Positions 1 to 25,097 are shown, numbered from the stretch's first letter. The stretch is 64,000 bases of DNA from Vicinamibacteria bacterium (GCA_963555995.3 OY821641.1:1344001-1408000); one strand, 5' to 3'. Numbers and translations: made by a program. Notes: generated by a model from the letters alone, not told the origin.

Positions 1-100
1 GGCGCCGCCTTCGCTGGTCGCGGAGGGGATGCGGGTGAGGGTTGCGGAGAGCGGTGCGACCCGGCCGGTCGGAGATGAGCCCCCGGGCGCGAATCCTTAG
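1..100 (+). CDS. 3' end of upstream gene, probably RND periplasmic adaptor (membrane fusion protein), partial
   Basis: Frame 2 reads APPSLVAEGMRVRV...GANP* to TAG at 98-100. 'EGMRVRV' resembles MFP C-termini and the ORF lies directly upstream of an RND permease. Confidence 0.4.
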   Translation, partial: APPSLVAEGMRVRVAESGATRPVGDEPPGANP

Positions 101-3100: not shown

Positions 3101-3275
3101 CGCCGGGGTAACCCCGCTCCTGGCGGAGCGCAGCTACCAGGCCGCGCTGCTGATCCCGATGGCGGTCTCGCTGGCCTTCGGAGTCGCCTTCGCCACCCTG
3201 GTCACGCTCTTCGTGGTGCCCGTCCTCTACAGCCTCGCGAACGACCTGACGACCCTGCTCTCAGGCCGCCGCTAG
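75..3275 (+). CDS. RND efflux transporter permease (AcrB/AcrD/AcrF family)
   Basis: About 1066 aa. IAWFVRNRVAAN N-terminus, ALGIVVDDAIVVGENV proton-relay motif, GIVVNDA and RFRAVILTSVTT motifs. Start chosen at ATG 75 (ORF track uses 42). Confidence 0.93.
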   Translation: MSPRARILRSDLRLSPASAADEVRSTGLIAWFVRNRVAANLVFFGVALGGYLALGGIPREQLPRTSSPAVVVRVAFPGAEAEVVESRVLLPLEEALRGIEGVREMTGLATDDAGVLSLVLEAGADIRRIGDIVRERVGSLASLPGAAEDPVVSEIVRHREIFRIAVHGAVSERDLHRAARLVHDAVAAVPGVAAVERLTGWDQELTIEIPTQNLTRFGLTFDGVAHAVRLGSADIPAGAVRSGARELRLRTEGAATTADDFGRIPVITAPEGDVVRLADIAMVTDGFAASDRDAWMNGEPALFLGVLLRDGGRLADTTASAREAIRAIRLPDGVRATPWYFASEDFEGRVDLMVRNGLAGLGLIFLVLFFTLSTRLAVWTAAGLPFTFFGAFLLMPGLGITVNLMSMFGFIVALGIVVDDAIVVGENVQRRMDRGGESREESAIRGTRRVLFPAAFGVLTTMAAFAPLLGIPGVYGELIGDVPRMVIPILAFSLIEAAWILPHHLARGGLSVRPSRRLARIRGRIQSGFDWTVETVYRPALRWALDNRLATLALGVFALSLAFGLTAGGFVQVVTNSPMDNNIAHVQITLPHDATSDTTRAVVASLDAVVDEVREAIRAESGVDVERHRVVLVGQRIPIGVGESFGGQPAEVGATVGQIVWRLSPQEDRAGIPTRAVADRVRDRIRSEPVDARVSVISDAFGQAADVSFRIRGPDFEGLLAASEALQTGLRELPGVTSVYDDFEGAAPGLVARVRPGESGAGFSAAAVGRQLRQVFHGEEVARLQRGRDEIRVVLRGPRADSGGALGVAGMLVRGSDGRVTPLGEIAEVSAAAGQAVIRRVDSLRAVAVLASVDGRVTTPDAVIATVRDQVLPGLRERFPGHDFAVAGLAGETEESQAALARSGLLAVLLIFVLLAIPLGSWTQPLLILAAIPFGLAGAVYGHLIMGINLDSMSLFGLVPLIGIVVNDALVMLDFMNRRQARGLPAREAALQSGPARFRAVILTSVTTCAGVTPLLAERSYQAALLIPMAVSLAFGVAFATLVTLFVVPVLYSLANDLTTLLSGRR

Positions 3276-9124: not shown

Positions 9125-10384
9125 GTGACCGCTCCCGCCGCGGGGTTGCTCACCCGCGAGGACGTCCTCGAACGGGACCGGACCGACCCGCTGGCCTCCT
9201 TCCGGGACCGGTTCGAGCTCCCCGAGGGGGTGATCTACCTCGACGGGAACTCGCTCGGACCCCCGTCCGCGGGAATGCGCCCGCGGATCGAGTCGCTGCT
9301 CGCCGACGAGTGGGGCCGTGATCTCGTCGCGTCGTGGAACCGTCACGGCTGGTTCCGGCTGCCCGAGCGGGTGGGGGCGCGGATCGCGCCGCTGCTCGGC
9401 GCCGGCGAGGACGAGGTGATCGCCGCCGACTCGGTGTCCCTCAACCTCTTCAAGCTGCTGGCCTCCCTGCTGCGGCGTCCGGGCTCGCGGCGGGTAGTGC
9501 TGGCCGAAGAGACCAACTTCCCCACCGACCTCTACATGGCCGAGGGGCTCGTGGGTCTGCTCCGGGAGAGCGGCGCGGAGCTTCGGGTCGTGCCCTCGGA
9601 CGATTTCGAGGCCGCGCTCGGACCCGAGGTGGCCGTCGCGACGCTGACCCAGGTGGACTTCCGGACCGGCCGGAAACACGACCTCCGGTGGCTCACCGCG
9701 GCGGCGCGGGACGCGGGGGTTCCCATCGTCTGGGACCTGAGCCACAGCGCCGGGGCCTTCCCGCTGCACCTGAACGACGACGGGGTCGAGTTCGCGGTCG
9801 GCTGCGGCTACAAGTATCTGAACGGCGGTCCCGGGGCGCCGGGCTTTCTGTACGTGGCGCGCCGTGTCCAGCAGTCCCTCGACACGCCGCTGTCGGGGTG
9901 GATGGGGCACTGCAGCCCCTTCGAATTCGAAACGCGCTACCGGCCGGCGGCGGGGGTACGGCGGTTTCTGAGCGGGACCCCGGGAATCCTCTCGATGATC
10001 GCGCTCGAAGAGGGTCTTCGGACCTTCGACCGGGTGGACATGGCGGAGCTTCAGGCGAAGAGCGAGGCACTGGGCGACCTCTTTCTCCGTCTCGCCGACG
10101 AGCGGCTCGCGGAACTCGGCGTCGAGCCCGCGAGCCCCCGGAATGCCGGAGAGCGGGGAAGCCAGGTCTCGCTGCGGCACGCCGCGGGGTACCGGGTGAT
10201 GCAGGCCCTGATCGCGCGCGGCGTCGTCGGGGACTTCCGGGACCCGGACCTCCTCCGGTTCGGCTTCGCCCCTCTCTACGTGCGGTACGTGGACATTTGG
10301 GACGCAGTGGATGCGCTCCGCGAGGTCCTGATCCGCGCGGAGTACCAGACCGCCCGGTTCGGGCAGCGGCAGCCGGTGACCTGA
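9125..10384 (+). CDS. kynU: Kynureninase (PLP-dependent)
   Basis: GVIYLDGNSLG, FPTDLY, WDLSHSAG and GCGYKYLNGGPG motifs. GAAGGAGG RBS precedes the GTG start. Confidence 0.93.
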   Translation: MTAPAAGLLTREDVLERDRTDPLASFRDRFELPEGVIYLDGNSLGPPSAGMRPRIESLLADEWGRDLVASWNRHGWFRLPERVGARIAPLLGAGEDEVIAADSVSLNLFKLLASLLRRPGSRRVVLAEETNFPTDLYMAEGLVGLLRESGAELRVVPSDDFEAALGPEVAVATLTQVDFRTGRKHDLRWLTAAARDAGVPIVWDLSHSAGAFPLHLNDDGVEFAVGCGYKYLNGGPGAPGFLYVARRVQQSLDTPLSGWMGHCSPFEFETRYRPAAGVRRFLSGTPGILSMIALEEGLRTFDRVDMAELQAKSEALGDLFLRLADERLAELGVEPASPRNAGERGSQVSLRHAAGYRVMQALIARGVVGDFRDPDLLRFGFAPLYVRYVDIWDAVDALREVLIRAEYQTARFGQRQPVT

Positions 10385-10436
10385 CTGCGCCCGGCGCAAC
10401 GCAACCCAACGCACCCTCGCGTATCGCCGGGAACAC

Positions 10437-10442
10437 TAGAAT
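10437..10442 (+). promoter_or_regulatory. Putative -10 element (TAGAAT) for a leaderless PKS transcript
   Basis: TAGAAT ends 7 nt before ATG 10450 with no SD sequence in between. No clear -35 element. Confidence 0.4.
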
Positions 10443-10449
10443 GCCTCCC

Positions 10450-13400
10450 ATGGGTGATCTTCGTGCGGGTGCCGGGACAACGGAGGGACCAGTGGCGGCG
10501 TTCCCCGTAGCCATCGTGGGGTACAGCCACCGCCTGCCCGGCGGACTCCGCACCGACGAGGATTTCTGGCGCCTGCTCTGCGAGCGCGAGATCGTGCAGG
10601 AGCCGATCACGGACCGCTACGGTCGGGGCTATCGGCCCATCGGTGAGTTCTCCGGCCCCGGCCGGTTCGCGAGCCCCTGGGAGGGGCTCATCCGCGACGA
10701 CGGGGAGAAACTCTTCGACCGCAGTCTCTTCGGTCTGTCCCAGAACGAAACGCTGGTGATGGACCCGCAGATGAGGATGCTGCTGACCTGCGCCTGGGAG
10801 ACCTTCGAGCGCGCGGGCTGGGACCTCCATTCGCTGCGCAACAGTGCGACCGGTGTCTTCATCGGCGCCCAGACCCCGCCGGTGGCGAACTGGCGGCCCC
10901 TGCGCGGCGCCACCCCGTTCGACGTAACCGGGCTCAGCCTGGCCATGCTGGCCAATCGCGTTTCCTATCACTTCAACCTCACGGGGCCGTCCACCACCTA
11001 CTGCACGGCCTGTTCGGCGAGCCTGACCGCCCTCCACGCGGCGATGAACGCGCTCCGCTGCGGCGACTGCGACCAGGCCGTCGTCGGTTCCGTCAACTAC
11101 CTCGGCACCAACCGGCTCAGCGTGTGTTTCAACGCGCTCGGCGTCATCAGTCCAGACGGCAAGTGCCACTCCTTCGACGCGGAAGCGAACGGCTACCTGC
11201 GGTCCGAGGGCGCGTTCGCCTATGCGATCAAGCCGCTGCCGGCGGCCGAGCGCGACGGGGACCGCATCTGCGCCGTGATCGAGGCCACCGCGGTGAACGC
11301 GGCGGGCGCCGCCGACGACAGCGTCGGCCTCGCCCAGGGCCGGTACATCACCGCGCCCACGCGGCACGCGCAGGTGCAGCTCATGGAGCAGGCCGCCGCC
11401 CGGGCGGGCCGCGGCCCCGAGGACTTCGACTACATCGAGGCCCACGCGACCGGCACCGTCGTGGGCGACCGGATCGAGGGAAACGCCATCGCGACGGCCT
11501 TCGGGGGTGTCCCCCGCGACGTTCCCCTGCGGATTTCGAGCGTCAAGAGCAACGTCGGCCACATGGAGGCCGCCGCGTTCCACTGCGCCCTGCTCAAGGT
11601 CCTGCTGATGCTGGAGCGCCGCGTCTTCGCGCCGACTTCGAGGAACTTCCTGGTTCCGAATCCGGAGATTGACTTCGAGAGCTGTCCCATGCAGGTGCAG
11701 ACCGCCAGCGAACCGTTCCCCGAGCGCCCGGTGGTGATCGGGATCAACTCGTTCGGCTTCGGCGGCGCCAACGGCCACTGCGTGGTGCGGGAATACCGCC
11801 CGCCCCGGCCGTCCGTCCGCTCGGTGGCGCTGGCGCCGGAGGCCGGATTCATGATTCCGCTTTCGGCTCGTTCCCCTGCGGCCCTGGTCCAGAGCGCGGA
11901 GCGCCTGCGGGACACGCTGGGCGAGCGGGACGTGGACCTCTACACGCTGGCGGGCAATCTCGGCCGGCGGCGCACCCACTTCGCCACCCGCACGGCCTTC
12001 GCGGCGGACACTCGGGAGGACCTGATTGCGGCGCTGGATGCGTTCGTCCGGGACCCGGCGCCGGTGGCCAACGTGGAGGAAGGCGAGCGGCGCCTGGCGA
12101 TGGTGTTCTCCGGTCAGGGCACGCAGTGGGCGGGATGCGGCCGCGAGCTCTACGACACCGAGCCCGTCTTCCGGCGCGCCGTGGACGGCATCGAGGCGCA
12201 CTGGCGGGAGCACTCGGACATCTCGCTGCGCGACGCCGCCTTCTCCGCCCCGCAGGCGGCGCTCGACGAAGTCAGCCTGGCCCAGCCGGTCATCTTCATG
12301 ATCCAGTGCGCGCTGGTCGAGTTGCTCAAGACCTGGGGCGTCTATCCGGACTGCGTGGTGGGGCACAGCTCCGGCGAGGTCGCCGCCGCAACCGCATCCG
12401 GGGTCCTGTCCCTCGCGGAAGCGACCCGGCTGGTGTACCACCGCGCCACCGAGCAGCAGCCGACGGCCGGATCGGGGCGCATGCTGGCCATCGGCCTCGA
12501 CCGGCCGGGGGTGGAGGAACTGCTCCACTCGCTGGACGTCCGGTTCGGGGACGGCGGGGACGAGCGGCCGGCGCAGGTCGAGATCGCCTGCGAGAACTCG
12601 CCCGCCAACACCGTCGTCTGCGGAAAGGAGGCCGCCCTGCGGCCGGTCATGGCGGAGCTCGACCGCCGCCGGCTGCAGCATGCGCTGCTGCCCGGAAACA
12701 TCGCGTTCCACTCCACCGCCATGGACCCGATCCGGGAGCGCGCGCTCCGAGCCCTGTCGTTCCTGGATGCGTGCGGGTCGGATCCCGACGCGCCGTTCGT
12801 CTCCTCGGTCACCGGCGCGGTCACGACGAAGCTGGACAGCGCCTACTGGTGGTCGAACATCCGCCAGCCGGTGCGGTTCGCGGCGGCGATGGAGACCGTC
12901 CAGCGCGAGTTCCGCCCCGCTGCGGTGCTGGAAATCGCCCCGCACTGCGCCCTGCAGCCGACCATCGCGCAATGCCTCGAGGGCTCCCCCCGGGAGCCGG
13001 CCTGCCTTCCCACCCTGATGCGCGACACCGACGTCCGCCTCGGCTTTCGGCGGACCCTGGGGTCCCTGTTCCGTATCGGCGTCGCGCTCGACTTCGAGTC
13101 GCAGTTTCCGCGGCCCGAACCCATCAGCCACCTGCTGCCCGGGCACCCGAGGGAAGAGGAGGCGGCGATGGACATCATGTGCGACAACGAGATGTTTGTC
13201 CGGCAGGGCGAGTACTCGCGCGGTCCGCTGGTGGGACACCGGGTTCCCGCGGAACATCCGCGCTTCGAGGCCCGGCTGTCGGACCAGGATTTCCCCTGGC
13301 TGACGGACCACCGGGTCCACCACGCGGCGATCATGCCGGCGGCCGGCTACATCGAGCTGGTCCTGGAGGCTCTCGGCGGCGCTTCCGTTCACTTCGAGGT

Positions 13401-16400
13401 ACTGGAATTCCTGCAGCCCTGTCCCGTCCCCAAGACGCCGGTGCGGCTGCAGACGGCCCTGCATCCGATCGCTTCGCTACCGGACGCGTTCACCTTCACG
13501 ATCTCTTCCCGGTCGTACGACGTGGATTCGCGGAGCGAACTGCATTGCCGCGGCAAGGTACGTCTGGTGGCCGAAGACCACCGCACGGGCGCGCCCGAAC
13601 GCCTCGGCGAAATTGACCGGACGCACTTCAAGCCCTCGTTCCTCGCCGACGACAAGAACTTCTACGAGCGCCTGGAAGCCGTCCTCAGCGAGACCTTCCA
13701 GTACGGCCCGTACTTCCGGACCATCCAGCGCGTTCTGGTGGACAAGGTCTCGCGGGCCTATCTGTTCGACGTGGAGATGGACGGCGGCCTGTGGACGACG
13801 GGCCGCGAGGAGGGCTACGTCTCCTGTCCTCCGCTGTTCGACGGCGGTCTGCAGATATTCCTCTACCACCTGCTGACCGCCGCCGACCTCTTCGCCATCC
13901 CGCAGCGCGCGGAAGGCGTGACCTTCCTGCGGCCGCCGAGCGGTCCCCGCATCACCTGCCATGTCACTCCACCCCGCGACGACTGGATGGACGCGAACGA
14001 GCGGGGGCAGTACTCGGTGCGCCGCGGCGAGCGGTCCGGGGGAAGCATCAGCTTCTACGACGCCGAAACGGGCGACCTGGTCGCCCACATCGCCGATTAC
14101 ACCTATTTCACCTCCAATCCCCGCTGGAACGACCTGCCGAACAGCAAGCACCGGATCGTCTGGCAGCCGAAGTCGCTTCCCGCCGGTCCGGAGCTGGCCG
14201 GCCGCCTGCCCCCCGGCGAGATCGAGCCCGCCGCGTTGATCGCGGCGCTCGAGCGGCCGCCCGCGGGCGAGGGCCTCGCCGCTCACGTCGTCGAGCTGGC
14301 CGGCGACCGGGAGCCGGACCGCACCGCGCTCACTGGCTGCATCGACGTTCTGGCCGGCGTCCACAGCCGGAGCGAATACTGGCTGGTCACGGACAGCGAA
14401 GACGCGGCGCGCGCCTGCCACGACGCGTTCCACCAGCACGACGCCGCGCTCCGTTTCGCGAACATTGATCCGGCGGCGCGCCGGGAACCGGAGACCGGTC
14501 TGCTGCGCCGCGCGGCTGCCGAGATCGTCCTCCTGCACGGCGACGACGGGGCCCTGACGCCGGAGCGATGGGAGCTGGCCCGCCGATTGGCGGTGGCCGG
14601 CGGACTCGCCCTGGTCCGCCATGGGGAGGACAGCGCGGTCGAGCCCGGCGCCGGATGGACGATGTTGCGGGCGGGACGGCGTTCCACCCTGCTGCAGGCG
14701 CCGCCCGAGTACGCGGACGCGTCCGACGCCGGGGAACTTCCGGGCCCGCGATGGGTACTCGGTGAATCGGGAGGCTGGGCTCCCGACTGGGTGTCCCTGC
14801 TGGATCGGCCGGAATCGGTGTACCGGATCCCGGAGGCGGACTGGACCGGCGCCCGGCTGCATGCGATGCACGAGTGGCCGGAGGCGGTGGACCTGCAGGC
14901 GATCGACTTCTTTTGCGGCACGGACCCCGTGGACCCCACGGGCGAGAACCTGGCCGCCCGCTTCATCGCCTTCGTCCAGGCCCTGACGTCCCGGCGGATC
15001 GAGCACGGGGGCTCCCGGTGCCGCCTCACCGTGGTGACGCGGAGGGCCGCCCACGAGGTGGAGGATGCGCGGGGCGGCGTGCTCTGGGGCGCGGTCCGCA
15101 GCATGGCGTTCGAGGTCGGGGAAGAGGCCGGGATTGATTTCCGCCTCGTTGACCTGGGCGATTCCGGCGACCTGGAGACGCTCGCCTGGCTCGCCCGCTG
15201 CGACCTGCGCGAACGGGAACTGGCCGTGCGCGACGGGCGGCTGTGGGCGCCGCGGCTGGTCAGCATCCGCGAGCGGTATGCGTCCGTGCCACCCGGCGAG
15301 GCCTGTACCTACGGGCTGGTCCTCGACAATCCGGGACAGATCGCCGGCCTCCAGATGAAGACCCGCGAACTCCCGGCGCCGGGGCCCGAGGACGTGGAGA
15401 TCGAGGTGGCCGCGGCGGCGCTCAACTTCCGCGACGTCATGGTGACGCTGGGCCTGCTGCCGGCGCTGGCGTACGAACGCTCGGCGCTCGGGGAGGGGAT
15501 CGGCATGGAGGCCGGCGGGATCGTGCGTCGGGTCGGAGCCGACGTGCGGCAATACGGGGTCGGCGATGCGGTGGCCTTCATCGGGAGCGGCTCCATCGCC
15601 AACCGCGTGACGGTGCACCAGCACCTCGTCTTTCCCAAGCCGGGCCGTCTCACCATGGAGGAAGCCGCCTCGACGCTCTCGGTCTATGTGACCGCGTACT
15701 ACTCGCTCATTCACCTGGCCCGTCTCGGGAAGGGGCAGCGGGTGCTGATCCACTCGGCGATGGGCGGGGTCGGGCAGGCCGCCATCGCTCTGGCCCGGCA
15801 TGCGGGCGCGGAGATCTATGCCACCGCCGGCAGCGAGAGCAAGCGCGAACGATTGCTGGAGCTTGGGGTGCGCGCCGCTTTCGATTCCCACAGCTTCGAG
15901 TGGTACGACGGCCTGATGGCGGCAACCGGGGGGCGGGGCGTGGACGTGGTCCTGAATTCCCTCGCCGGGCACCACATCGAGCTCTGCCTCCAGGCCCTGC
16001 GGCCGGGCGGCTGGCACTGCGAGATCGGCAAGGTGGACATCTACGCGGACAACGAGCTCGGCCTGCGTATCTTCCGGAAGAACCTGCGCTTTGCGGCGAT
16101 TGATGTTGACCGCCTGATGCTCGACGATCCCAAGTTGGCGCGCGAGCTTTCCCGGACCTGCCTCGACCTGGTGGGTCGCGGGGACCTGCCGCCGTTGCCC
16201 GTCACGGTGTTCCCCTACGCGGACTACGCCACGGCGCTGCGCCGGATGACCGCCGGGCAGCACCAGGGAAAACTGGTTCTGAGGGCGCCCGAGGTTTCCG
16301 GGGACCCCGGATTCCCGATCGCCGACGTGCGGCCCCTGTTCGATCCCGAGGCGACCTACCTGGTGACCGGCGGGCTCGGCGGCTTCGGACTGCGGCTCCT

Positions 16401-17538
16401 GCCGTATCTGGTGGCCTCGGGGGCGCGCCATCTCACCCTGATGGACCGGGATCCGGAGCGCCGCCGGAACGCTGACTGGATCCGCCGGTCGAGCGCCCTG
16501 GCCTACCTGGACGCCCCGGTCGAGTTCGACATCGTCACCGGCGATGTCGCGGCGGAGGCGGATGTCCGGCGCTGCGTAGCGCAACTGAAGCGGCCGCTGA
16601 AGGGCGTTTTCCACCTGGCCGGCGTCCTCGACGACCGCCTGCTCGACGACCTGTCCGCGGAATCGGTGGCGCGTGTCTTCGCGCCCAAGGCCCGGGGCGC
16701 CCTCCATCTGCACGAGGCCACCCTCGATCACCCCCTTGACGCGTTCGTGCTGTTCTCGTCCACCGCCGCGGTGCTGGGCAACCCCGGACAGATCAACTAC
16801 AGCGCCGCCAACGCCTACCTCGACGGCCTCGCCGCCAGCCGCCGCCGGCAAGGGTTGCCGGGTCTGTCCTGTAACCTGGCCGCCGTCGCGGATGCCGGCA
16901 TGGCCGCCCGCAGCCTCCCGGTCCTGCGCATGATGCGGGCCGCGGGCCTGCCCCCGGTCAGCAGCGACTTCGCCATCGCCAACCTGGACTATGCGCTCCG
17001 CGCGATGCCCCACGCGGACCACCTGATCACCGCCCTGTTCGAACGTCCTTCCTGGACCGTGGATCTGCCGGACTACCTGCGCATCGGACGGCTGCTGCGC
17101 AACCGGGACGCCTTCGAGGCCGGCGCCGCAGGGGAACTGACAGTGGAGACCGTGGTTCAGGCGATCGCCGCCAAGGTCGCCGAACTCTGCGGTCACGACG
17201 AGTGCGGCGCCGAGGAGCCGCTTTCGAGTTTCGGCCTCACGTCCATCTCCGTCGCCGAACTCGGCACCTTCATCCAGACGGAGTTCAACTACCGGGTGAG
17301 CGCGCTGGAACTGATGACGACCGCATCCGCCCTCTCGCTGGCGCAGGGCATCGTCCATGGCCCGGATGAGGTCGCGGAGGACTCCGGGGACATGGGCGAC
17401 GCCCCGGTCGAGAAGGTGTCCCCCGCGGTCCGGCCGCGCGCCGCCCGCGCCCCGTCGGTTTTCGCGAACCCGCCGGAGAGCCATTTCCCGCACGGCCAGG
17501 ATGCCAGCCCGACCGTTTCCGCGATTCAGCGGGCCTGA
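10450..17538 (+). CDS. Mono-modular reducing type I PKS/FAS, SwfA-like (KS-AT-DH-pseudoMT-ER-KR-ACP, no TE)
   Basis: KS: CTACSAS, EAHATGT, KSNVGH. AT: FSGQGTQW, GHSSGE, AFHS. DH: LTDHRVHHAAIMP and LFDGGLQ. ER: LIHSAMGGVG. KR: YLVTGGLGGFG, YSAAN. ACP: FGLTSIS. Start may be 10441, 10450 or GTG 10492. Confidence 0.93.
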   Translation: MGDLRAGAGTTEGPVAAFPVAIVGYSHRLPGGLRTDEDFWRLLCEREIVQEPITDRYGRGYRPIGEFSGPGRFASPWEGLIRDDGEKLFDRSLFGLSQNETLVMDPQMRMLLTCAWETFERAGWDLHSLRNSATGVFIGAQTPPVANWRPLRGATPFDVTGLSLAMLANRVSYHFNLTGPSTTYCTACSASLTALHAAMNALRCGDCDQAVVGSVNYLGTNRLSVCFNALGVISPDGKCHSFDAEANGYLRSEGAFAYAIKPLPAAERDGDRICAVIEATAVNAAGAADDSVGLAQGRYITAPTRHAQVQLMEQAAARAGRGPEDFDYIEAHATGTVVGDRIEGNAIATAFGGVPRDVPLRISSVKSNVGHMEAAAFHCALLKVLLMLERRVFAPTSRNFLVPNPEIDFESCPMQVQTASEPFPERPVVIGINSFGFGGANGHCVVREYRPPRPSVRSVALAPEAGFMIPLSARSPAALVQSAERLRDTLGERDVDLYTLAGNLGRRRTHFATRTAFAADTREDLIAALDAFVRDPAPVANVEEGERRLAMVFSGQGTQWAGCGRELYDTEPVFRRAVDGIEAHWREHSDISLRDAAFSAPQAALDEVSLAQPVIFMIQCALVELLKTWGVYPDCVVGHSSGEVAAATASGVLSLAEATRLVYHRATEQQPTAGSGRMLAIGLDRPGVEELLHSLDVRFGDGGDERPAQVEIACENSPANTVVCGKEAALRPVMAELDRRRLQHALLPGNIAFHSTAMDPIRERALRALSFLDACGSDPDAPFVSSVTGAVTTKLDSAYWWSNIRQPVRFAAAMETVQREFRPAAVLEIAPHCALQPTIAQCLEGSPREPACLPTLMRDTDVRLGFRRTLGSLFRIGVALDFESQFPRPEPISHLLPGHPREEEAAMDIMCDNEMFVRQGEYSRGPLVGHRVPAEHPRFEARLSDQDFPWLTDHRVHHAAIMPAAGYIELVLEALGGASVHFEVLEFLQPCPVPKTPVRLQTALHPIASLPDAFTFTISSRSYDVDSRSELHCRGKVRLVAEDHRTGAPERLGEIDRTHFKPSFLADDKNFYERLEAVLSETFQYGPYFRTIQRVLVDKVSRAYLFDVEMDGGLWTTGREEGYVSCPPLFDGGLQIFLYHLLTAADLFAIPQRAEGVTFLRPPSGPRITCHVTPPRDDWMDANERGQYSVRRGERSGGSISFYDAETGDLVAHIADYTYFTSNPRWNDLPNSKHRIVWQPKSLPAGPELAGRLPPGEIEPAALIAALERPPAGEGLAAHVVELAGDREPDRTALTGCIDVLAGVHSRSEYWLVTDSEDAARACHDAFHQHDAALRFANIDPAARREPETGLLRRAAAEIVLLHGDDGALTPERWELARRLAVAGGLALVRHGEDSAVEPGAGWTMLRAGRRSTLLQAPPEYADASDAGELPGPRWVLGESGGWAPDWVSLLDRPESVYRIPEADWTGARLHAMHEWPEAVDLQAIDFFCGTDPVDPTGENLAARFIAFVQALTSRRIEHGGSRCRLTVVTRRAAHEVEDARGGVLWGAVRSMAFEVGEEAGIDFRLVDLGDSGDLETLAWLARCDLRERELAVRDGRLWAPRLVSIRERYASVPPGEACTYGLVLDNPGQIAGLQMKTRELPAPGPEDVEIEVAAAALNFRDVMVTLGLLPALAYERSALGEGIGMEAGGIVRRVGADVRQYGVGDAVAFIGSGSIANRVTVHQHLVFPKPGRLTMEEAASTLSVYVTAYYSLIHLARLGKGQRVLIHSAMGGVGQAAIALARHAGAEIYATAGSESKRERLLELGVRAAFDSHSFEWYDGLMAATGGRGVDVVLNSLAGHHIELCLQALRPGGWHCEIGKVDIYADNELGLRIFRKNLRFAAIDVDRLMLDDPKLARELSRTCLDLVGRGDLPPLPVTVFPYADYATALRRMTAGQHQGKLVLRAPEVSGDPGFPIADVRPLFDPEATYLVTGGLGGFGLRLLPYLVASGARHLTLMDRDPERRRNADWIRRSSALAYLDAPVEFDIVTGDVAAEADVRRCVAQLKRPLKGVFHLAGVLDDRLLDDLSAESVARVFAPKARGALHLHEATLDHPLDAFVLFSSTAAVLGNPGQINYSAANAYLDGLAASRRRQGLPGLSCNLAAVADAGMAARSLPVLRMMRAAGLPPVSSDFAIANLDYALRAMPHADHLITALFERPSWTVDLPDYLRIGRLLRNRDAFEAGAAGELTVETVVQAIAAKVAELCGHDECGAEEPLSSFGLTSISVAELGTFIQTEFNYRVSALELMTTASALSLAQGIVHGPDEVAEDSGDMGDAPVEKVSPAVRPRAARAPSVFANPPESHFPHGQDASPTVSAIQRA

Positions 17539-17540
17539 AC

Positions 17541-19283
17541 ATGACCAAGGCACTGCTGGTCTATCCCGCACAACCGCCGACCTACTGGGGCGCGAACTAC
17601 GCCCTGGAGATGGTGGGCATCAAGTCGGCCTTCCCGCCCTTGGGCCTGCTCACCATCGCCGCCATGTTTCCGCCGGAGTACGAGTTGCGGGTCATTGACA
17701 TGAACGTGGCGCCGCTCACGGACTCCGATCTGGAGTGGGCCGACCTGGTCTTCACCTCCACCATGATCGTCCAGCGGGTTTCCCTGCAGGCGGTCATCGA
17801 ACGCTGCAACCGCGCCGGCGTCCCCGTGATCGCCGGGGGCCCGCACCCCACCACGTTCCACGACGAGATCCCGGGCGTGGACCACTTCGTGCTGGACGAA
17901 GCGGAGGAGACCTTCCCCGGATTCCTGCGCGACCTCGAGAACGGGATCGCCCGGGCGATCTACCGGGAGCCGAGGAAGCCCGACGTCACCCGGACGCCCG
18001 TGCCCCGCTTCGACCTGATCAACCCGGACAACTACTACTCGATGGGTCTCCAGTTCTCCCGGGGCTGTCCGTTCAACTGCGAGTTCTGCGACATCACCAA
18101 GCTCTACGGCCGGGTGCCGCGGACCAAGTCGCCAGCGCAGATGGTGACCGAGTTCGAGGCGCTCTACCGGTTGGGCTGGCGGGGGCCCCTGTTCCTGGTG
18201 GACGACAACTTCATCGGCAACAAGCGGGAGGCGATGGAGCTGCTGCCGGTCCTCGCCGAGTGGCAGAAGGCCCACGGATACCCGTTTTCCCTTTCGACGG
18301 AAGCGAGCGTCAACCTGGCCCACCTGGACGAGTTGATGGACGCCATGGTCGCGTCCGGTTTCGACACCGTGTTCCTCGGCATCGAGACGCCCAACCCCAA
18401 GGCGCTGATCAAGACCAAGAAACAGCAGAACACCTCGAGGAGCGACGAGAACTTCCTGTTCAACGCGGTGCGCACGATCCAGCGGAAGGGCATCCAGGTC
18501 CAGGGCGGATTCATTCTGGGACTTGACAGCGACGACGACACGGTGTTCGACGCGCAGATCGAGTTCATCCAGCAGGCGGGAATCCCGGTCGCGCCGATCT
18601 ACCTGTTGACCGCGCTCCGCGGCACGGACATGTACCAGCGGCTGGATTCGGAGAACCGGCTGCTGGAAACGGCGATCGGCACCAATGCGATGACGCTCAA
18701 CTTCCAGCCCGAGCTGGACCCCGAGCTGCTGCTCGACGGGTATCGGCGGGTCACGGCCACCCTCTACGACGCCACCCTCGAGAACTACTTCGAGCGGTGT
18801 CTGACCCTGTTCGAGCACCTCGAACCGGTCCCGCACCTGAGGAAGCCGATGGGAGAGAACGCCATCGTCGTCGCGGCCATGCGCGTGCGCCGGCAACTAT
18901 CGCCGGAACAGATTCCCGCGTTTTCGAGGTTCATCGCCAGGGTCTCCCGCGATTTCCCGCGCCTGCTGCCCCTGGCGGTGCGGCTGGCCGGGCTCGGCTA
19001 CCACTTCGAACGGATCACCCGCCAGCAGATCCTGATCCATGACTTCAAGCTGTTTCTGGAGGCCGAGGCGGACCGGTTCCGGGAGGTGGTTGCGCCCCGC
19101 GCCGGGCGCTCGAACGACGTCCGCGGCCGCCGACAGGCCGTGTTCGCGCAGGCCGAGAAGCGCTACCGGGAGATCCCCGGCGATCTTCGCTACGACGAAG
19201 ACGGCGTTGATTTCGCCCTCGAAGCCTTCCGGTCCTCGGTGAACGCCCAGGCGGAGCGGTTCCTCCATCCGGGAAGCGCCTGA
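17541..19283 (+). CDS. B12-binding radical SAM protein (class B methyltransferase-like, SwfC-like)
   Basis: N-terminal cobalamin-binding domain (PPLGLLT, IAGGPHPT), CPFNCEFC CxxxCxxC motif, VDDNF. Starts 2 bp after the PKS stop. Confidence 0.9.
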   Translation: MTKALLVYPAQPPTYWGANYALEMVGIKSAFPPLGLLTIAAMFPPEYELRVIDMNVAPLTDSDLEWADLVFTSTMIVQRVSLQAVIERCNRAGVPVIAGGPHPTTFHDEIPGVDHFVLDEAEETFPGFLRDLENGIARAIYREPRKPDVTRTPVPRFDLINPDNYYSMGLQFSRGCPFNCEFCDITKLYGRVPRTKSPAQMVTEFEALYRLGWRGPLFLVDDNFIGNKREAMELLPVLAEWQKAHGYPFSLSTEASVNLAHLDELMDAMVASGFDTVFLGIETPNPKALIKTKKQQNTSRSDENFLFNAVRTIQRKGIQVQGGFILGLDSDDDTVFDAQIEFIQQAGIPVAPIYLLTALRGTDMYQRLDSENRLLETAIGTNAMTLNFQPELDPELLLDGYRRVTATLYDATLENYFERCLTLFEHLEPVPHLRKPMGENAIVVAAMRVRRQLSPEQIPAFSRFIARVSRDFPRLLPLAVRLAGLGYHFERITRQQILIHDFKLFLEAEADRFREVVAPRAGRSNDVRGRRQAVFAQAEKRYREIPGDLRYDEDGVDFALEAFRSSVNAQAERFLHPGSA

Positions 19284-19294
19284 ATGGCGCGTAC

Positions 19295-19500
19295 GGCTTG
19301 GAACGCCGGTCTCCAGACCGGCACGCGCGGTGCTCCGCACCGCGCACGGCGCAACTCTGACCCGCGCGGTGGCGCTCTTCTCCGTTTGCTTCTCAACGGA
19401 CTGGACGTTCCCCCGACCGAATCCCGCAACTGTGCCTGACGACTCGACATCCGCGGCCCTGCGGGCAGCTGTGCCGGCCGGGAGACCGGCGTTCCAAGCC
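19295..19500. repeat. Inverted REP pair (about 206 bp) inside the PKS cluster
   Basis: GGCTTGGAACGCCGGTCTCCAGACCGGCAC at 19295 and its near-perfect inverse ending at 19500 (2 mismatches in 30 bp). Confidence 0.85.
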
Positions 19501-19579
19501 GGTGCGCCATCGCGCGCACCGGCGGACCGTGAGGACTTCGGTGCTCACGACACTTCCACGAGAGGCTGCTGAGACCGTC

Positions 19580-22096
19580 ATGGCTGTTCCGGTGGCCGTG
19601 GACGACGCCATCGCACCGCTCGCCGGAAACCTGCCGGCGCACTGCCAGGCCGACGTCGAGACGCTGCGCCGGTTCGTTCATGCGACCGTCAGTGCGGAGT
19701 CGCCAGCTCCGGCAGTTTCTCCGAACGAGTTTCGGGACGTCCTGCTGACCGGGGCCACCGGTTTCATCGGCCGTTTCTTCCTGGCCGAGCTCCTGCGGCA
19801 GCGGACCGGGTTGCGGGTCCACTGCGTCGTCCGCTGCGACACCGCCGCCCACGGACGCGAGCGCGTTCGCGCCGCCCTCGAGCAGGCGGAAATCTGGGAC
19901 GACTCCTTCGAACCTCGCATCGAGGTGGTCGCGGGCGACATCGGCCGGCCCCGGTTCGGCCTTTCCGACGGGCAGTTCGACGTTCTCGGCCGGCGGATGG
20001 ATGCGGTCTATCACCTGGCGGCCGACATCCATCTCCAGTCTTCCTATCTCGCGATCCGCAAGATCAACACGTTCGGGGTGCGGAACGTGCTCGAACTATG
20101 CCTGCGCCAGCGCTTCAAGCATCTGTTCTACGCGTCCACCATGGGCGTGTTCCCGCAGTACTTCGGTTTTTTCGCGAACGAGTTCCGGGACGACGCGATC
20201 GGTCACCAGATGCAGCCGGACCTCGCGAAGATGAAGAAGACGTTTCCGCTGGGCCTGCTCGGCTATCCGTGGAGCAAATTGACCTCGGAACAGGCGCTCC
20301 TGTTTGCGCAGCGCGCCGGCATGCCGCTCGGGATCCTCCGGCTTCCGCAGACCAACCTGTCCAGCACGGGATACAGCCCGCCAGGCGATCCTGCCGTTCG
20401 GTTGTTCGCGGCCGCGATCCAGTGCGAAGTCCTGCCCGAGGGATTCACGTTTCGATCCAGCAACGAGGCGGTGGACACGCTGAGCCGGGTCGCGGTCGCC
20501 ATCTCCCTGAACCCGGACCGCCGGTTCACGATCTACCACTGCTGCAACCCACACCTGGATCCGTACGACCTCGAACCCGCCGATTTCGGGTTCTACTGGC
20601 CCACCGTGCCCTACGAGTCGTTCAAGCGGGCCTGCCAGGCGCGTGGCGAAGACTCACCGCTTCACGGTCACTGGGCCGTGCTCGATCACTTCGCCAAGTA
20701 CTGGTTCAGCAGGAACAAGCCGCAGCAACGGCTGCCGGTTTGCGACCGCGCCATTCGCGAAGACTGCCCCTTCCCGATCGAGTGGATGGGGACGTTGGGC
20801 AAGCTCAAGCGTTCCCACGCCTGGGTTGGGCGTCATCGTCAGGAGTGGCCGCACGCCGTCCCGCAAAGCCGCCTCGACTTCGACAGCCTCGTGGGCCAGG
20901 CCAAACGTTTTGCCGCGGAGTTGGACGTCCCCTTCGAGTCGGCCTGTCCCGGCTGGACACGCGAGGCCCTGAAGCGGCTGGTCCGGTCGCTGAGGGCGCC
21001 CGAGGCGAAGCTCCGCGAGGACAGGCTCGGCGATGTCGTGTTTGAGTTGAGCCGTTTTCTCCGCCGGCACGCCGAGCTCGCGCGGGAACGGCAACGCCAC
21101 CCGGAGATCGTGGGGGAGCGGATCGCCAGGCCGGTGTTCATCGTTGGAATGAACCGAAGCGGCACTACCTTTCTGCACCGCCTGATCGCGCGCGATCCGC
21201 GGTTCTGGGCGCTCCGGCTCTACGAACTCGTTGAGCCCGTCCTGCCGGCGGACGAGTATGCCGCCGTGGCGGGTACGCCGGACGACCCCCGGCGCGCCCG
21301 AATCGCGGAAGCGTCCCACTCCTTCGACATCTTCAAGGTGATGGAGGGTGTTCATCCCTTCGACATTGATGCGCCGGAAGAGGATTTCCCGATTTTCAAG
21401 AAGGCTTTTGTTTCCTGGAGCTTTACCGCGCAATTCAGGGTCCCGGACTACGCTCGCTGGCTCGCCGCGAACGGTTCCGGCGACGCCTATGCCTTTCATC
21501 GGCGCACGGTGCAGTACTACGCCTGGCAACGTCGTCAGGTTGGCCCCGGGCGTGTGGGGCAGTGGTTGTTCAAGATGCCCTTCCACCTGATGGAACTGGA
21601 AACCCTGCTCGAGACCTATCCCGACGCCTTCTTCATCCAGACCCATCGAGGGCCCACTCAGGTGATGGGGTCCTGGAACAGCCTGGTGGAACGGGCGCGC
21701 TCCGTTGCGATGAAACCGCTTCCCCGAGACGACCTCGGAGCCGAACAGCTGGCCTTCATGAGCGGAATGTTGAACGGGGCGGCGCGATTCCGTTCGGCCC
21801 ATCCGGAACTCGAGCACCGCTGGGCCGACGTGGCCTATGCCGATCTGATCCGCGACCCCATCGCGGTCGTCGGTGACCTCTATCGCCGGTTCGACTGGCC
21901 GCTACCGCAGACGGTGGTCGCCGCAATGAACGCGTGGCTGTCAGGGCAGGCGGAACGGCGGCGCCGCGAGGTCCGGCACCGCTACCGCCTGGAGGACTAC
22001 GGCCTCACGCCGAACGCGGTTGACGCCGCCTTCGCACCGTATCGGGAGTTCGCCGAGGCGCTGGAGATGCACGCCGCTCTTCCCGCGAAGGGCTGA
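19580..22096 (+). CDS. Thioester reductase (R) - sulfotransferase fusion, SwfB-like
   Basis: N-terminal extended SDR: VLLTGATGFIG, YHLAA, YPWSK (YxxxK). C-terminal sulfotransferase: PVFIVGMNRSGTTFLHRL (5'-PSB loop), FKMPFH, QTHRGP...VMGSW. Confidence 0.9.
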   Translation: MAVPVAVDDAIAPLAGNLPAHCQADVETLRRFVHATVSAESPAPAVSPNEFRDVLLTGATGFIGRFFLAELLRQRTGLRVHCVVRCDTAAHGRERVRAALEQAEIWDDSFEPRIEVVAGDIGRPRFGLSDGQFDVLGRRMDAVYHLAADIHLQSSYLAIRKINTFGVRNVLELCLRQRFKHLFYASTMGVFPQYFGFFANEFRDDAIGHQMQPDLAKMKKTFPLGLLGYPWSKLTSEQALLFAQRAGMPLGILRLPQTNLSSTGYSPPGDPAVRLFAAAIQCEVLPEGFTFRSSNEAVDTLSRVAVAISLNPDRRFTIYHCCNPHLDPYDLEPADFGFYWPTVPYESFKRACQARGEDSPLHGHWAVLDHFAKYWFSRNKPQQRLPVCDRAIREDCPFPIEWMGTLGKLKRSHAWVGRHRQEWPHAVPQSRLDFDSLVGQAKRFAAELDVPFESACPGWTREALKRLVRSLRAPEAKLREDRLGDVVFELSRFLRRHAELARERQRHPEIVGERIARPVFIVGMNRSGTTFLHRLIARDPRFWALRLYELVEPVLPADEYAAVAGTPDDPRRARIAEASHSFDIFKVMEGVHPFDIDAPEEDFPIFKKAFVSWSFTAQFRVPDYARWLAANGSGDAYAFHRRTVQYYAWQRRQVGPGRVGQWLFKMPFHLMELETLLETYPDAFFIQTHRGPTQVMGSWNSLVERARSVAMKPLPRDDLGAEQLAFMSGMLNGAARFRSAHPELEHRWADVAYADLIRDPIAVVGDLYRRFDWPLPQTVVAAMNAWLSGQAERRRREVRHRYRLEDYGLTPNAVDAAFAPYREFAEALEMHAALPAKG

Positions 22097-22266
22097 TTTC
22101 CGGGACCAGTTCCTGTGGGACGCCGCGGATCGTGAGCAACCCGGCCAGCGAGATCGCGAACAGGAGGAGGTTCGCCGCGACCCGGTTCCTGACGAACCAG
22201 GCGATCGCTCCGCCCGACGGAGGCCCGCCGGATCGTCCGCGCCGCCTTCCCCACCGGCGCGGTCAT
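22089..22266 (-). pseudogene. Truncated 5' remnant of an RND permease gene
   Basis: Minus strand 22211-22089 encodes GAIAWFVRNRVAANLLLFAISLAGLLTIRGVPQELVPEISP, paralogous to the N-terminus of 75-3275. GAGGAG RBS and ATG at 22266 are out of frame. Homology stops at the R-ST stop codon. Confidence 0.8.
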
Positions 22267-22350
22267 CTTCTCGCTCCTCATCCGGCGACCCGACCGCGGC
22301 CTCGGTGGCCGCTGCCGGTTCCGGCAGGCCGTTCCGGCGGAGCGCCGGGA

Positions 22351-24174
22351 CTATTCGAGAGAGTCCAGCACGCGCTGGACGCAGCGTTCCGCCGACTCGG
22401 CCCCGGCGTCGAGACGGAGGTCCGGCGCCTCGGGCGGCTCGTAGGGGCTGCCGATCCCGGTGAAGTTCTTCACCTCGCCGCGCCGCGCCCGGGCGTAGAG
22501 GCCCTTCGGGTCCCGGGCCTCGCAGGTGTCGAGCGGAGCGTCCACGAAGATCTCGTGGAAATCGCCGGGTTCGAAGCGGCCGCGCGCGAACTCGCGCTCC
22601 GCGCGATAGGGACTGATGAAGGCCACGATCACGATCAGTCCGGCGTCCACCATGAGGCGGGCGACCTCGGCTACGCGGCGGATGTTCTCGGCGCGGTCGG
22701 CCTCGGTGAACCCGAGGTCCCGGTTCAGGCCGTGGCGGACGTTGTCCCCGTCCAGGACAAACGTGTGGCGGCCCTCGGCGGCGAGCCGCTTTTCGAGCAG
22801 GTTGGCGATCGTGGACTTCCCCGACCCGGACAGTCCGGTCAGCCACAGGCAGCGCGGGCGCTGCGCCTTGGCGCGGGCGCGGAGTTCCGGGGTGACCTCG
22901 AACTCCTGCCAGCGGAGGTTGGCGGCCCGCATCAGCGGGAAGCGGATCATCCCGGCGCCCACCGTGGCTCCGGTCCGCCGTTCCAGCAGGATGAAACCGC
23001 CGAGGATGCGGTTCTCGTCATGACGGGCGAAGGGCAGGGATTGGTCGGTCGCCAGGTTGACGCAACCGATGTCGTTCAGCCCGAAAGTGGGCGCCGGACG
23101 GGTCCGTCCGTCCACCACGTCCAGCCGGTGCTTGATCCGGGTGACCGTGACACCGGTTTCCCGGGTGTGGAGCTTCAGCAGGTAGGGACGGCCGACGACC
23201 AGCGGTTCGTCGCCCATCCAGAGGAGATGCGTCTGGAACTGGTCCGCCACCTCGACGGGATCATCCGCCGCCGCGATCACGTCGCCGCGGCTCACGTCGC
23301 GCTCGTCCTTCAGCACCAGGGTGACCGAATCGCCGCGCCCGGCCCGTTTGCGTTCCCCTTTCCAGACGACGATCCGCTCGATTTCGGTTTCCGTGCCCGC
23401 GGGGAAGATCCGCACCCGGTCGCCGGTCGAGACCGCGCCCGACGCGATCCTGCCGCAGTAGCCGCGAAAGTCGGAACTCGGCCGGTTCACGTACTGGACC
23501 GGCATCCGGAAGGACTCGTTCGCGCCGGGAGGCGCGACTTCCACCGTTTCCAGGTGATCGAGGAGCGTCGGCCCGGAATACCAGGCAGTCTTCCTTCCCG
23601 CCTTCGTCACGTTTTCGCCGGTGAGCGCCGACAGCGGAATCGCCTGCGTGGCGGTGATTCCGGTGCTTTGCGCCACTGCCCGGTAGGCGTCGGTGACGGC
23701 CTCGAAACGGGCCGGGTCCCAGCCGACGCGGTCCATCTTGTTCACCGCGAGGACCACGTGACGGATGCCGAACATTCCCGCGATCCGGCTGTGCCGGGCG
23801 GTCTGGGGAAGCACGCCCTTCTCCGCGTCCACGAGGACGACGGCGACGTCAGCCACGGAGGCGCCGGTCGCCATGTTGCGGGTGTACTGCTCGTGGCCGG
23901 GCGCGTCCGCCACGAAGAACGCCCGGCTGGGCGTCTCGAAGCGGCGGTAGGCGACGTCGATGGTGATGCCCTGTTCCCTTTCGGCCATCAACCCGTCCAT
24001 GAGGAGCGCGAGGTCGGTGGCGTCGCCCTGGGTCCCGTAGCGGCGTGACGCTTCCTCGGCGGCCCGGAACTGGTCCTCGAAAACCGCCCCGCATTCGTGG
24101 AGCAGCCGGCCGATAAGGGTGCTCTTGCCGTCGTCCACACTCCCGCACAGGACGAGCCGGAGGGGAGGGAGCAT
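22351..24174 (-). CDS. cysNC: Bifunctional sulfate adenylyltransferase subunit 1 / adenylylsulfate kinase (CysNC/NodQ)
   Basis: GSVDDGKST, EREQGITIDVAYR, DAPGHEQYTRNM and NKMD GTPase motifs. C-terminal APS kinase WLTGLSGSGKST, LDGDNVRHGL. Confidence 0.95.
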   Translation of the reverse strand: MLPPLRLVLCGSVDDGKSTLIGRLLHECGAVFEDQFRAAEEASRRYGTQGDATDLALLMDGLMAEREQGITIDVAYRRFETPSRAFFVADAPGHEQYTRNMATGASVADVAVVLVDAEKGVLPQTARHSRIAGMFGIRHVVLAVNKMDRVGWDPARFEAVTDAYRAVAQSTGITATQAIPLSALTGENVTKAGRKTAWYSGPTLLDHLETVEVAPPGANESFRMPVQYVNRPSSDFRGYCGRIASGAVSTGDRVRIFPAGTETEIERIVVWKGERKRAGRGDSVTLVLKDERDVSRGDVIAAADDPVEVADQFQTHLLWMGDEPLVVGRPYLLKLHTRETGVTVTRIKHRLDVVDGRTRPAPTFGLNDIGCVNLATDQSLPFARHDENRILGGFILLERRTGATVGAGMIRFPLMRAANLRWQEFEVTPELRARAKAQRPRCLWLTGLSGSGKSTIANLLEKRLAAEGRHTFVLDGDNVRHGLNRDLGFTEADRAENIRRVAEVARLMVDAGLIVIVAFISPYRAEREFARGRFEPGDFHEIFVDAPLDTCEARDPKGLYARARRGEVKNFTGIGSPYEPPEAPDLRLDAGAESAERCVQRVLDSLE

Positions 24175-25097
24175 CAGAAATATCCCTCGCGTTTCTTGCG
24201 TTCCATGGACGCCTCGCCGTCGTGGTCGATCAGCCGGCCGTGGCGTTCCGAGCGGTTTGCCGCCAGCGTCTCAGCGAGGATCGCCTCCACGGTGTCGGCC
24301 TCGCTCTCGATCCCCGCGGTCAACGGATAGCAGCCCAACGTGCGGAACCGGACGCGGCGCATCTGCGGCGCTTCCCCCGGACGGAGGCGCAGACGCTCGT
24401 CGTCCACGAGGATCAAGCCTCCCTCGCGTTCCACGACGGGACGCTGTCTCGCGTAGTAGAGCGGGACGACGGGGATGTGCTCGGCGGCGACGTAGCGCCA
24501 GACGTCGGCCTCCGTCCAGTTGGAGAGCGGCGAGACGCGCAGCGACTCTCCCGGCCGCAGCCGCGTGTTGTAAAGGTTCCAGATCTCCGGACGCTGCGTC
24601 CTCGGTTCCCACTGGTGGGCGGAGTTCCGTAGCGAGAAGACGCGCTCCTTGGCGCGGGAACGCTCCTCGTCCCGGCGAACGCCGCCGAAGATGACGTCGT
24701 AGCGGCCGGCGTCGAGCGCCTGCCGGAGCGCCTGGGTCTTCATCACGTCCGTGTAGTGGGCGGATCCGTGATCGAAGGGGTTGATCCCGGCGTGGAGTCC
24801 TTCCTCGTTGATGTGGACGCTCAGGTCGAGCCCCAATTCCGAGGCCATCCGGTCCCGGAAGGCGATCATCTCCCGGAACTTCCAGGTCGTGTCGATGTGG
24901 AGGAGGGGGAAGGGAACCGGCGCCGGCCAGAACGCCTTGTGCGCGAGATGAAGCAGGGCCGACGAGTCCTTGCCGATGGAATACAGCATCACCGGCCGCT
25001 CGGCGGTCGCCACCCCCTCGCGGAGGATCTCGATGGCCTCGGCTTCAAGCGTTCCGAGGATCGGACCGCAGTCCGACCGGGTGCCGCCGGCCGTCAC
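24174..25097 (-). CDS. cysD: Sulfate adenylyltransferase subunit 2
   Basis: [39 protein letters not shown] and [10 protein letters not shown] motifs. GTG start at 25097 inferred (307 aa). Confidence 0.93.

Follow-up and report, generated by a model that had tools for sequence, protein, structure and literature searches.

Insertion of an intact swf cluster next to the only detected cysD-cysNC pair of a Vicinamibacteria genome, and its predicted alkyl sulfate pathway

Introduction

How does a swf cluster come to face genes for the synthesis of 3'-phosphoadenosine 5'-phosphosulfate (PAPS), and what might this pairing reveal about the product of the cluster? The question is raised by a 64,000-nucleotide stretch of a Vicinamibacteria bacterium genome (GCA_963555995.3 OY821641.1:1344001-1408000; hereafter the window, with positions counted from its first letter), in which swfA, swfC and swfB, encoding a PKS/FAS (polyketide synthase/fatty acid synthase), a radical S-adenosylmethionine (SAM) protein and a reductase-sulfotransferase (R-ST) fusion, converge on cysNC and cysD. 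The swf cluster belongs to a pair of PKS/FAS clusters found across sponge microbiomes, with a product sought since 2013. The founding members, PS11G3, PSA11D7 and POR_0547-0550, were described by Della Sala 2013 (PMC3908369), who already put forward as the product an alkyl sulfate that SwfC might methylate; reductive release, O-sulfation and radical methylation are thus not new, and they remain proposals. Passages of later papers report swf from Acidobacteriota, Nitrospirota, Latescibacterota and Tectomicrobia, with a patchy distribution across phyla. Here we report that the locus is a further intact swf member, inserted beside the only cysD-cysNC pair detected in its genome (two contigs totalling 3.8 Mb, 93% complete). 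The locus brings no new enzyme, and the product hypothesis is already in print; what it adds is genomic evidence that the sulfotransferase is used, from the lack of any other detected PAPS outlet and the repeated pairing of swf with PAPS genes, together with a correction to the view, taken in a sequence-only reading of the window, that the adjacent PAPS genes would make the locus self-sufficient.

Results

An intact swf cluster meets cysNC and cysD head-on

Family scans and the list of open reading frames bore out the five genes of the sequence-only reading: swfA (10441..17538, 2365 aa), swfC (17541..19283, 580 aa) and swfB (19580..22096, 838 aa, its frame open from a GTG at 19502) lie on the + strand and meet cysNC (22351..24174, 607 aa) and cysD (24174..25097, 307 aa), both on the - strand, and all five frames are open. 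Because the two sets are convergent, the swf and cys genes are not one transcript. The start of swfA had been given as 10450, which is the next in-frame ATG after the start at 10441; the domain reading, with no thioesterase (TE), stood. swfC begins two bases past the swfA stop. Three features had gone unremarked: a methyltransferase (MT)-like fold within SwfA, a REP-like repeat between swfC and swfB (19285..19360, longer copies extending to ~19510; matched 273 times in the genome over 50 nt or more at 85% identity or higher), and a 146-bp remnant of a resistance-nodulation-division (RND) gene between swfB and cysNC.

The domains, sizes and motifs of the three proteins fit swf, as had been claimed. 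The ketosynthase (KS) of SwfA forms, with 20 swfB-linked KS sequences, a single long-branch clade (100/99) that excludes the genome's 23 other KS rows; the tree was built without the founding SwfA (JX946307/JX946308), WcbR and animal FAS, and the clade serves as a proxy for kinship with the founders. The junctions are probably not misassembled: contigs span kynU-swfA in three of four sequencing runs, one of them from a separate study at ~93% identity, and identical overlapping contigs tile swfB-cysNC in two of four runs, which share a study with the best-matching run and so are not fully independent. A run labelled as a sponge metagenome contains a relative ~93% identical over kynU-swfA, which bears on whether the host is a sponge symbiont.

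The swf genes were inserted beside resident cys genes

In the congeners G340, G348, G376 and G421, the stop codon of kynU lies within ~40 bases of that of cysNC, and lhr and the wider gene order around kynU-cysNC match those of the source genome where inspected. Because congeners have kynU directly against cysNC, the 11.9-kb block at ~10385-22322, which here follows kynU (kynureninase, 9125..10384, + strand, outside the pathway), was inserted at a resident site. The RND remnant, ~38 codons from the 5' end of an AcrB-type gene (22086..22231, - strand), marks the right end of this block; across 146 nt it is 89.7% identical to the RND gene that the genome itself carries (C1:277843-277988), and it is 92% identical at the amino acid level to the RND protein encoded beside swf in congeners G326 and G340. 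RND genes lie beside swf in all seven other swf-bearing genomes among 401 of the class, and in three swf-bearing congeners swf stands by a trio of membrane fusion protein (MFP) and RND genes (MFP-RND-RND), away from cysNC. The intact copy here is in such a trio at C1:274.8-282.8 kb, and the exporter that flanks swf in relatives is 1.1 Mb away.

CysNC is 77-87% identical to the same-site copies of congeners and only 47-50% identical to swf-linked copies from Nitrospira, and for this reason we rejected a self-contained island in which swf and cys genes were transferred together. Self-sufficiency of the locus by descent is therefore not supported, since the cys genes are resident in congeners and swf was inserted beside them. 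The sole phosphopantetheinyl transferase (PPTase) of the genome, of the Sfp type, is encoded 13 kb upstream of swfA; in two other members of the class a PPTase gene directly follows swfB. The PPTase gene here sits left of the window (C1:1,340,239-1,343,900) between genes for an alpha/beta hydrolase and a metallophosphoesterase, and this group adjoins an MFP-RND pair whose RND gene is at window positions 42-3275.

SwfC of the three swf-bearing congeners is 89% identical to the source copy, but their SwfA and SwfB, at just 61-67% identity, branch within another acidobacterial family, which indicates that swf genes have been exchanged piecemeal. These congeners (G326, L069; G348, L071; G340, L072-L073) have retained their own swfC, and their swfA-swfB, apparently acquired from the other acidobacterial family, lies across the RND trio.

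PAPS has one detected consumer in this genome

The motifs of CysNC, a fusion of the ATP sulfurylase GTPase subunit with adenosine 5'-phosphosulfate (APS) kinase, are intact, and cysNC and cysD, the latter encoding the catalytic subunit of ATP sulfurylase, score above their NCBIfam cut-offs (890 bits against 715, and 492 against 413). Genome searches found a single copy of cysD, a single APS kinase (the one within CysNC) and no sat. SwfB is the sole Sulfotransfer_3 match in the genome, and Sulfotransfer_1 had no match, in searches whose controls matched in 2 of 14 genomes. No NIR_SIR match for sulfite reductase was found (control matched in 11 of 14), and the sole other PAPS_reduct match is weak and sits in a DUF4007 operon. 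The absence of cysH and cysIJ, noted earlier for the window, thus extends to the whole genome. An assimilatory role for cysD-cysNC was rejected on these grounds and because a sulfite reductase was likewise missing from all 10 family genomes searched. The DUF4007 operon (C1:3,198,647-3,203,869), which also encodes a 1151-aa protein and the PAPS-reductase-like protein, is a possible further user of sulfur and presumably an Ssp-type DNA modification system.

Congeners carry, between dinB and DUF1801, an operon encoding a short-chain dehydrogenase/reductase (SDR), ERG24, DUF1214, an ST that is 32% identical to the ST domain of SwfB, a second SDR and SRPBCC. Here, the dinB and DUF1801 flanks are only 208 bp apart, indicating that the operon is truly absent rather than unassembled. 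The version with LysE at its head and ERG4/ERG24 annotation (L081:4772-11131 in G340; L082 in G376) may specify sterol modification and sulfation. Given the sole sulfotransferase match, the lack of a detected sulfite reductase and the missing ST operon, PAPS has one detected consumer, SwfB.

Comparison across the family agrees with such a demand. Sulfotransfer_3 is present in 10 of 28 family genomes, every one of which has a full-length APS kinase; among the other 18, 13 have no APS kinase, three have partial or broken copies (G336, G445 and, counted without inspection, G342) and two have intact ones (Fisher p 2.5e-4, a value overstated by kinship). The cysD-cysNC genes are intact here and truncated or frameshifted in G336 and G445, congeners that lack an ST. 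Copy numbers and comparative data together support the proposal that CysD and CysNC are the source of PAPS for SwfB.

Pairing of swf with PAPS-making genes in three lineages

In three lineages swf stands beside PAPS-making genes, which differ in origin from one lineage to the next, and the adjacency is lineage-specific rather than general. The Nitrospira family to which record L001 belongs has swfB in 15 of 115 genomes. Each of the 15 has a full-length APS kinase, encoded in 12 of them on the same strand no more than 2 kb downstream of swfB; in the remaining three it is 6 kb off, 13 kb from a remnant, or on another contig, with swfB touching a contig end. The swf-linked Nitrospira CysNC has deletions in its CysN part, two genomes retain the kinase part alone, and the second copy in swfB-bearing Nitrospira genomes gives only a partial kinase match. 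A metagenome locus (L041) has both the arrangement and the lineage of Nitrospira. In G120, which belongs to the same class as the source genome, sat-cysC, MFP, RND, swfA, swfC, swfB and RND form a same-strand run, and this sat-cysC is a second copy, 89% identical to the other in that genome.

For the count of adjacency outside Nitrospira, 19 loci were informative: 16 are in genomes searched for APS kinase, which was present in 16 of 16, and three are metagenome contigs known by their flanks alone. Left out were a 4-kb contig (L006), swf remnants (L045 and G270), L011, four ST-only matches and the duplicates G098 (=G002), G180 (=G009) and G210 (=G008). A binomial estimate of chance gave p ~0.001-0.02 under assumed rates and is indicative only. 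We found no paper that states the link, which the supplementary figures of PMC9426513 and PMC10227082 could show.

Some swf loci are decaying, with deleted swfA and frameshifted or truncated swfB (L048:14441-16333 in G270, L045, L094 and L104). Most loci across phyla are flanked by a gene for a 90-aa protein, POR_0546-like in size and place and usually accompanied by or fused to a STAS domain (L001:393-674, L002:12553-13149, L003:176-852 and L043:763-1430, among others); these are candidate extra swf components, and no such protein was found in the source genome.

Domains and motifs of SwfA, SwfB and SwfC

SwfA, a mono-modular fully reducing PKS/FAS, has the Pfam order KS (~10504-11638), acyltransferase (AT, 12103-13086), dehydratase (DH, from 13225), enoylreductase (ER, 15382-16281), ketoreductase (KR, 16351-16890) and acyl carrier protein (ACP, 17158-17346); the same Pfam scan matched no TE in SwfA or SwfB. 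The motifs QCALVEL, GHSSGE, IAFH and the primer site FSGQGTQW are exactly those of PMC3908369, and the protein also carries TACSAS, the DH His/Asp pair, KR YSAAN and ACP GLTS. The KS motif EAHATGT (at 11437) contains HATGT in place of HGTGT, again exactly as in PMC3908369, and is identical in all 20 other swf KS rows, and DPQMR has Met for the second Q of DPQQR, where other swf loci have V, L or I. The AT motif points to malonyl, and the conserved motifs of DH and ER are intact.

The methyltransferase-like fold lies, with a structural KR subdomain, between the DH and ER domains (14113..15315, residues 1225-1625). Its predicted structure (predicted local distance difference test score, pLDDT, 82) gave PsoA, LovB, Pks16 and animal FAS as top Foldseek matches, with stand-alone methyltransferases ranking lower. 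No methyltransferase domain was matched by Pfam in SwfA, and a profile search of PDB sequences with this region recovered the KR-structural part alone. The glycine-rich SAM motif looks degenerate beside what we take to be its canonical form. The fold thus appears to be an inactive pseudo-MT, and a hidden active MT was rejected, since the fold exists but lacks a Pfam match and has a degenerate motif. A pseudo-MT would fit methylation being left to SwfC.

SwfB joins an NAD_binding_4/thioester reductase domain (~19739-20551) to a Sulfotransfer_3 domain (~21131-21907). The nearest solved structure to the R domain is MxaA (4U7W, E 6e-41), which we take to reduce its substrate to the primary alcohol, and the nearest ST chains are 2ZQ5 and 2Z6V, presumably the mycobacterial STF1 and STF9; no PKS-embedded ST chain among solved structures matched at E 0.001. 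Across the best 120 of 540 SwfB homologues, the NADPH motif and S186 of the R domain are conserved, with Y229 in 119 and K233 in all 120, and the 5'-phosphosulfate loop of the ST domain (G523, N525, R526, G528, T529, T530) is invariant, as are E601, K665, H669 and T688-H689-R690, with S698 in 119. E601, presumably the catalytic base, aligns with a glutamate in both 2ZQ5 and 2Z6V. A structure model of the whole protein reached a pLDDT of 42 and was set aside.

SwfC, HpnP-like and cobalamin-dependent, has B12-binding, radical SAM (CPFNCEFC, CX3CX2C) and DUF4070 domains, a set found in HpnP and also common to uncharacterised HpnP-like proteins. Of the 28 family genomes, 4 have swfB; swfC is present in each of these and missing from the rest. 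No squalene-hopene cyclase was matched in the 93% complete genome with TIGR01507, a model whose cut-off no control genome reached, which makes methylation of the host's own hopanoids an unlikely role for SwfC. The B12-dependent mutase genes of the genome imply that B12 is taken up.

Discussion

A predicted alkyl sulfate pathway

From these genes, motifs, copy numbers and gene orders we infer that the swf pathway probably produces a saturated fatty chain, which leaves the synthase as a primary alcohol and is then sulfated with PAPS made by CysD and CysNC, yielding a predicted alkyl sulfate in which methylation by SwfC is optional. The sole detected PPTase would load the ACP of SwfA; the ACP of another SwfA was activated by Svp (PMC3908369, 2013). 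SwfA is predicted to extend malonyl units iteratively, with full reduction, from a presumed starter to a presumed chain length. The R domain of SwfB would then take the acyl-ACP to the aldehyde and on to the alcohol, as its intact SDR motifs and likeness to MxaA suggest, and the ST domain would move sulfonate from PAPS to the C1 hydroxyl, with comparative genomics supporting the demand for PAPS. The weakest step is the addition of a methyl branch by SwfC in place of the degenerate MT of SwfA, and it may well be optional, given that swfC is missing from many swf loci. Finally, an RND pump of the kind found next to swf in relatives may export the product.

Several observations weigh against this pathway. 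The whole swf cluster yielded no new metabolite in E. coli BAP1, and such sulfates are not known to be widespread in sponges (PMC3908369). The adjacency seen here arose by insertion. Outside Nitrospira, PAPS genes lie near swf at 1 of 19 informative loci (G120; some upstream flanks are short), so that recurrence of PAPS genes beside swf held in Nitrospira and G120 and failed at the other 18. A full or near-full APS kinase is also present in 10 of 20 swf-less Nitrospira relatives searched (80 more were not searched), and kin genomes are not independent, so that our counts overstate the association. The status of SwfB as sole sulfotransferase is qualified by searches with PF09037, PF03567 and PF19798, which were empty in the genome and matched no control genome either, and PF17784 was not searched. 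As to methylation, passages of the HpnP literature confirm methyltransferase activity solely within the true HpnP clade and not for HpnP-like proteins, and cobS was not found in the genome, so that B12 must come from outside.

Alternatively, sulfation could be real but transient: the alkyl sulfate would act as a leaving group or an activated donor of the alkyl chain, and what is finally made, such as an ether lipid, an N-alkyl compound or an alkene, would be free of sulfur. This would account equally well for the PAPS demand and also for the fact that no widespread alkyl sulfate is known from sponges, it has a precedent in the activating sulfation of curacin (cited in PMC3908369), and most swf loci are flanked by a STAS protein and a 90-aa protein with no assigned role. 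However, no enzyme that would transfer the chain to an acceptor is conserved beside swf in the scanned flanks, there is no TE for a curacin-type elimination, and the RND pumps of relatives fit export of a finished amphiphile; we consider this explanation unlikely. Less likely again is that the ST modifies an in-chain group, such as a 3-hydroxyl, of the ACP-bound chain before release by R, giving a secondary sulfate or diol monosulfate. Sequence does not tell the order in which R and ST act, and iterative PKSs may skip DH and ER in the last cycle (PMC3908369), but the DH and ER motifs of SwfA are intact and the ST matched 2ZQ5 and 2Z6V rather than any PKS-embedded ST. Least likely of the three is an incidental adjacency, in which swf would yield a fatty alcohol or aldehyde, its ST would be inactive or would work on substrates of another kind, such as host steroids, and cysD-cysNC would be a relic that served a lost sterol-type ST operon. 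The cys genes are indeed older than the insertion, congeners use them beside that operon and its loss could be recent, but the ST motifs are invariant in 120 homologues, the cys genes have stayed intact here and not in the ST-less congeners G336 and G445, and in Nitrospira and G120 PAPS genes came to lie beside swf separately.

If swf does lead to alkyl sulfates, a broader proposal follows, which we offer tentatively and at somewhat less than even confidence: swf may be a PAPS-consuming route to exported alkyl sulfates, a bacterial counterpart of the aliphatic sulfates of marine invertebrates, that three lineages independently joined with PAPS genes. The partners would then be a resident cysD-cysNC here, a sat-cysC duplicate in G120 and, for Nitrospira, a CysNC that stands as the fourth gene of the operon and is being reduced to its APS kinase alone. 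According to passages of PMC6780655, aliphatic sulfates occur, though rarely, in sponges, ascidians and echinoderms, with none tied to swf there. Were the proposal true, a shortage of PAPS and B12 would explain the failed heterologous expression of 2013.

Other observations in the genome

Outside the window, two open frames of ~19,600 and ~15,900 aa (C1:3,320,786-3,427,259, - strand) contain 16 HGTGT KS motifs, several of the KS being identical, and one AT motif, with an RND gene adjoining; this giant trans-AT-like PKS is possibly of greater interest than the swf locus. Within the window, a fatty acid desaturase domain is fused to a weak GlnE-like adenylyltransferase region (33479-35989, + strand).

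Comparison with known systems

In an assimilatory cysDNC operon, APS or PAPS reductase and sulfite reductase would be expected, whereas here there is no detected sulfite reductase and the PAPS_reduct match is weak only. HpnP shares its three domains with SwfC, but squalene-hopene cyclase was not found in this swf host. CurM and other olefin synthases share an ST at the end of the PKS, but a TE follows the ST there and not here, and the ST of SwfB instead shares a protein of its own with a reductase and matched no PKS-embedded chain. The mycobacterial Mas and Pks2 give the best PDB and NCBIfam scores for SwfA, yet the score is 908 bits against a Pks2 cut-off of 2400. In the mycobacterial sulfolipid-1/Stf systems, CysD-CysNC supplies PAPS as well and the ST resembles that of SwfB (2ZQ5/2Z6V); in sulfolipid-1, the sulfate is on trehalose and the chains are transferred rather than reductively released.

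The sup cluster is, like swf, a sponge-symbiont type I PKS/FAS, but without an R-ST partner for SupA; passages in print link it to methyl-branched fatty acids. A PKS elsewhere in this genome (DPQQR/HGTGT), with a KS outside the swf clade, is putatively sup-like, and a 3,457-aa frame (C1:3,252,371-3,262,741, + strand) with KS-AT, ER and a second KS likewise appears sup-like. The swf-like clusters of metagenome-assembled genomes (Loureiro 2022, PMC9426513; 'Ca. Thalassonella', PMC10227082) share Acidobacteriota, Nitrospirota and Latescibacterota hosts, and PAPS genes and RND pumps go unmentioned in the passages concerned, with supplementary figures S1 and S13 outside this scope.

The closest known system is that of the swf founders (PMC3908369). 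They differ in having I or V in the KS motif where DPQMR stands here, in the STAS and POR_0546-like small genes, which are absent from this locus, in having no adjacent cysD-cysNC in two fosmid gene tables, and in their hosts, the one here being a member of the Acidobacteriota. They share the same three genes and domains, with sizes of 2365, 580 and 838 aa here and 2349-2361, 585 and 832-839 aa there, the A-C-B gene order of POR_0547-0550, the signature motifs and the proposed product.

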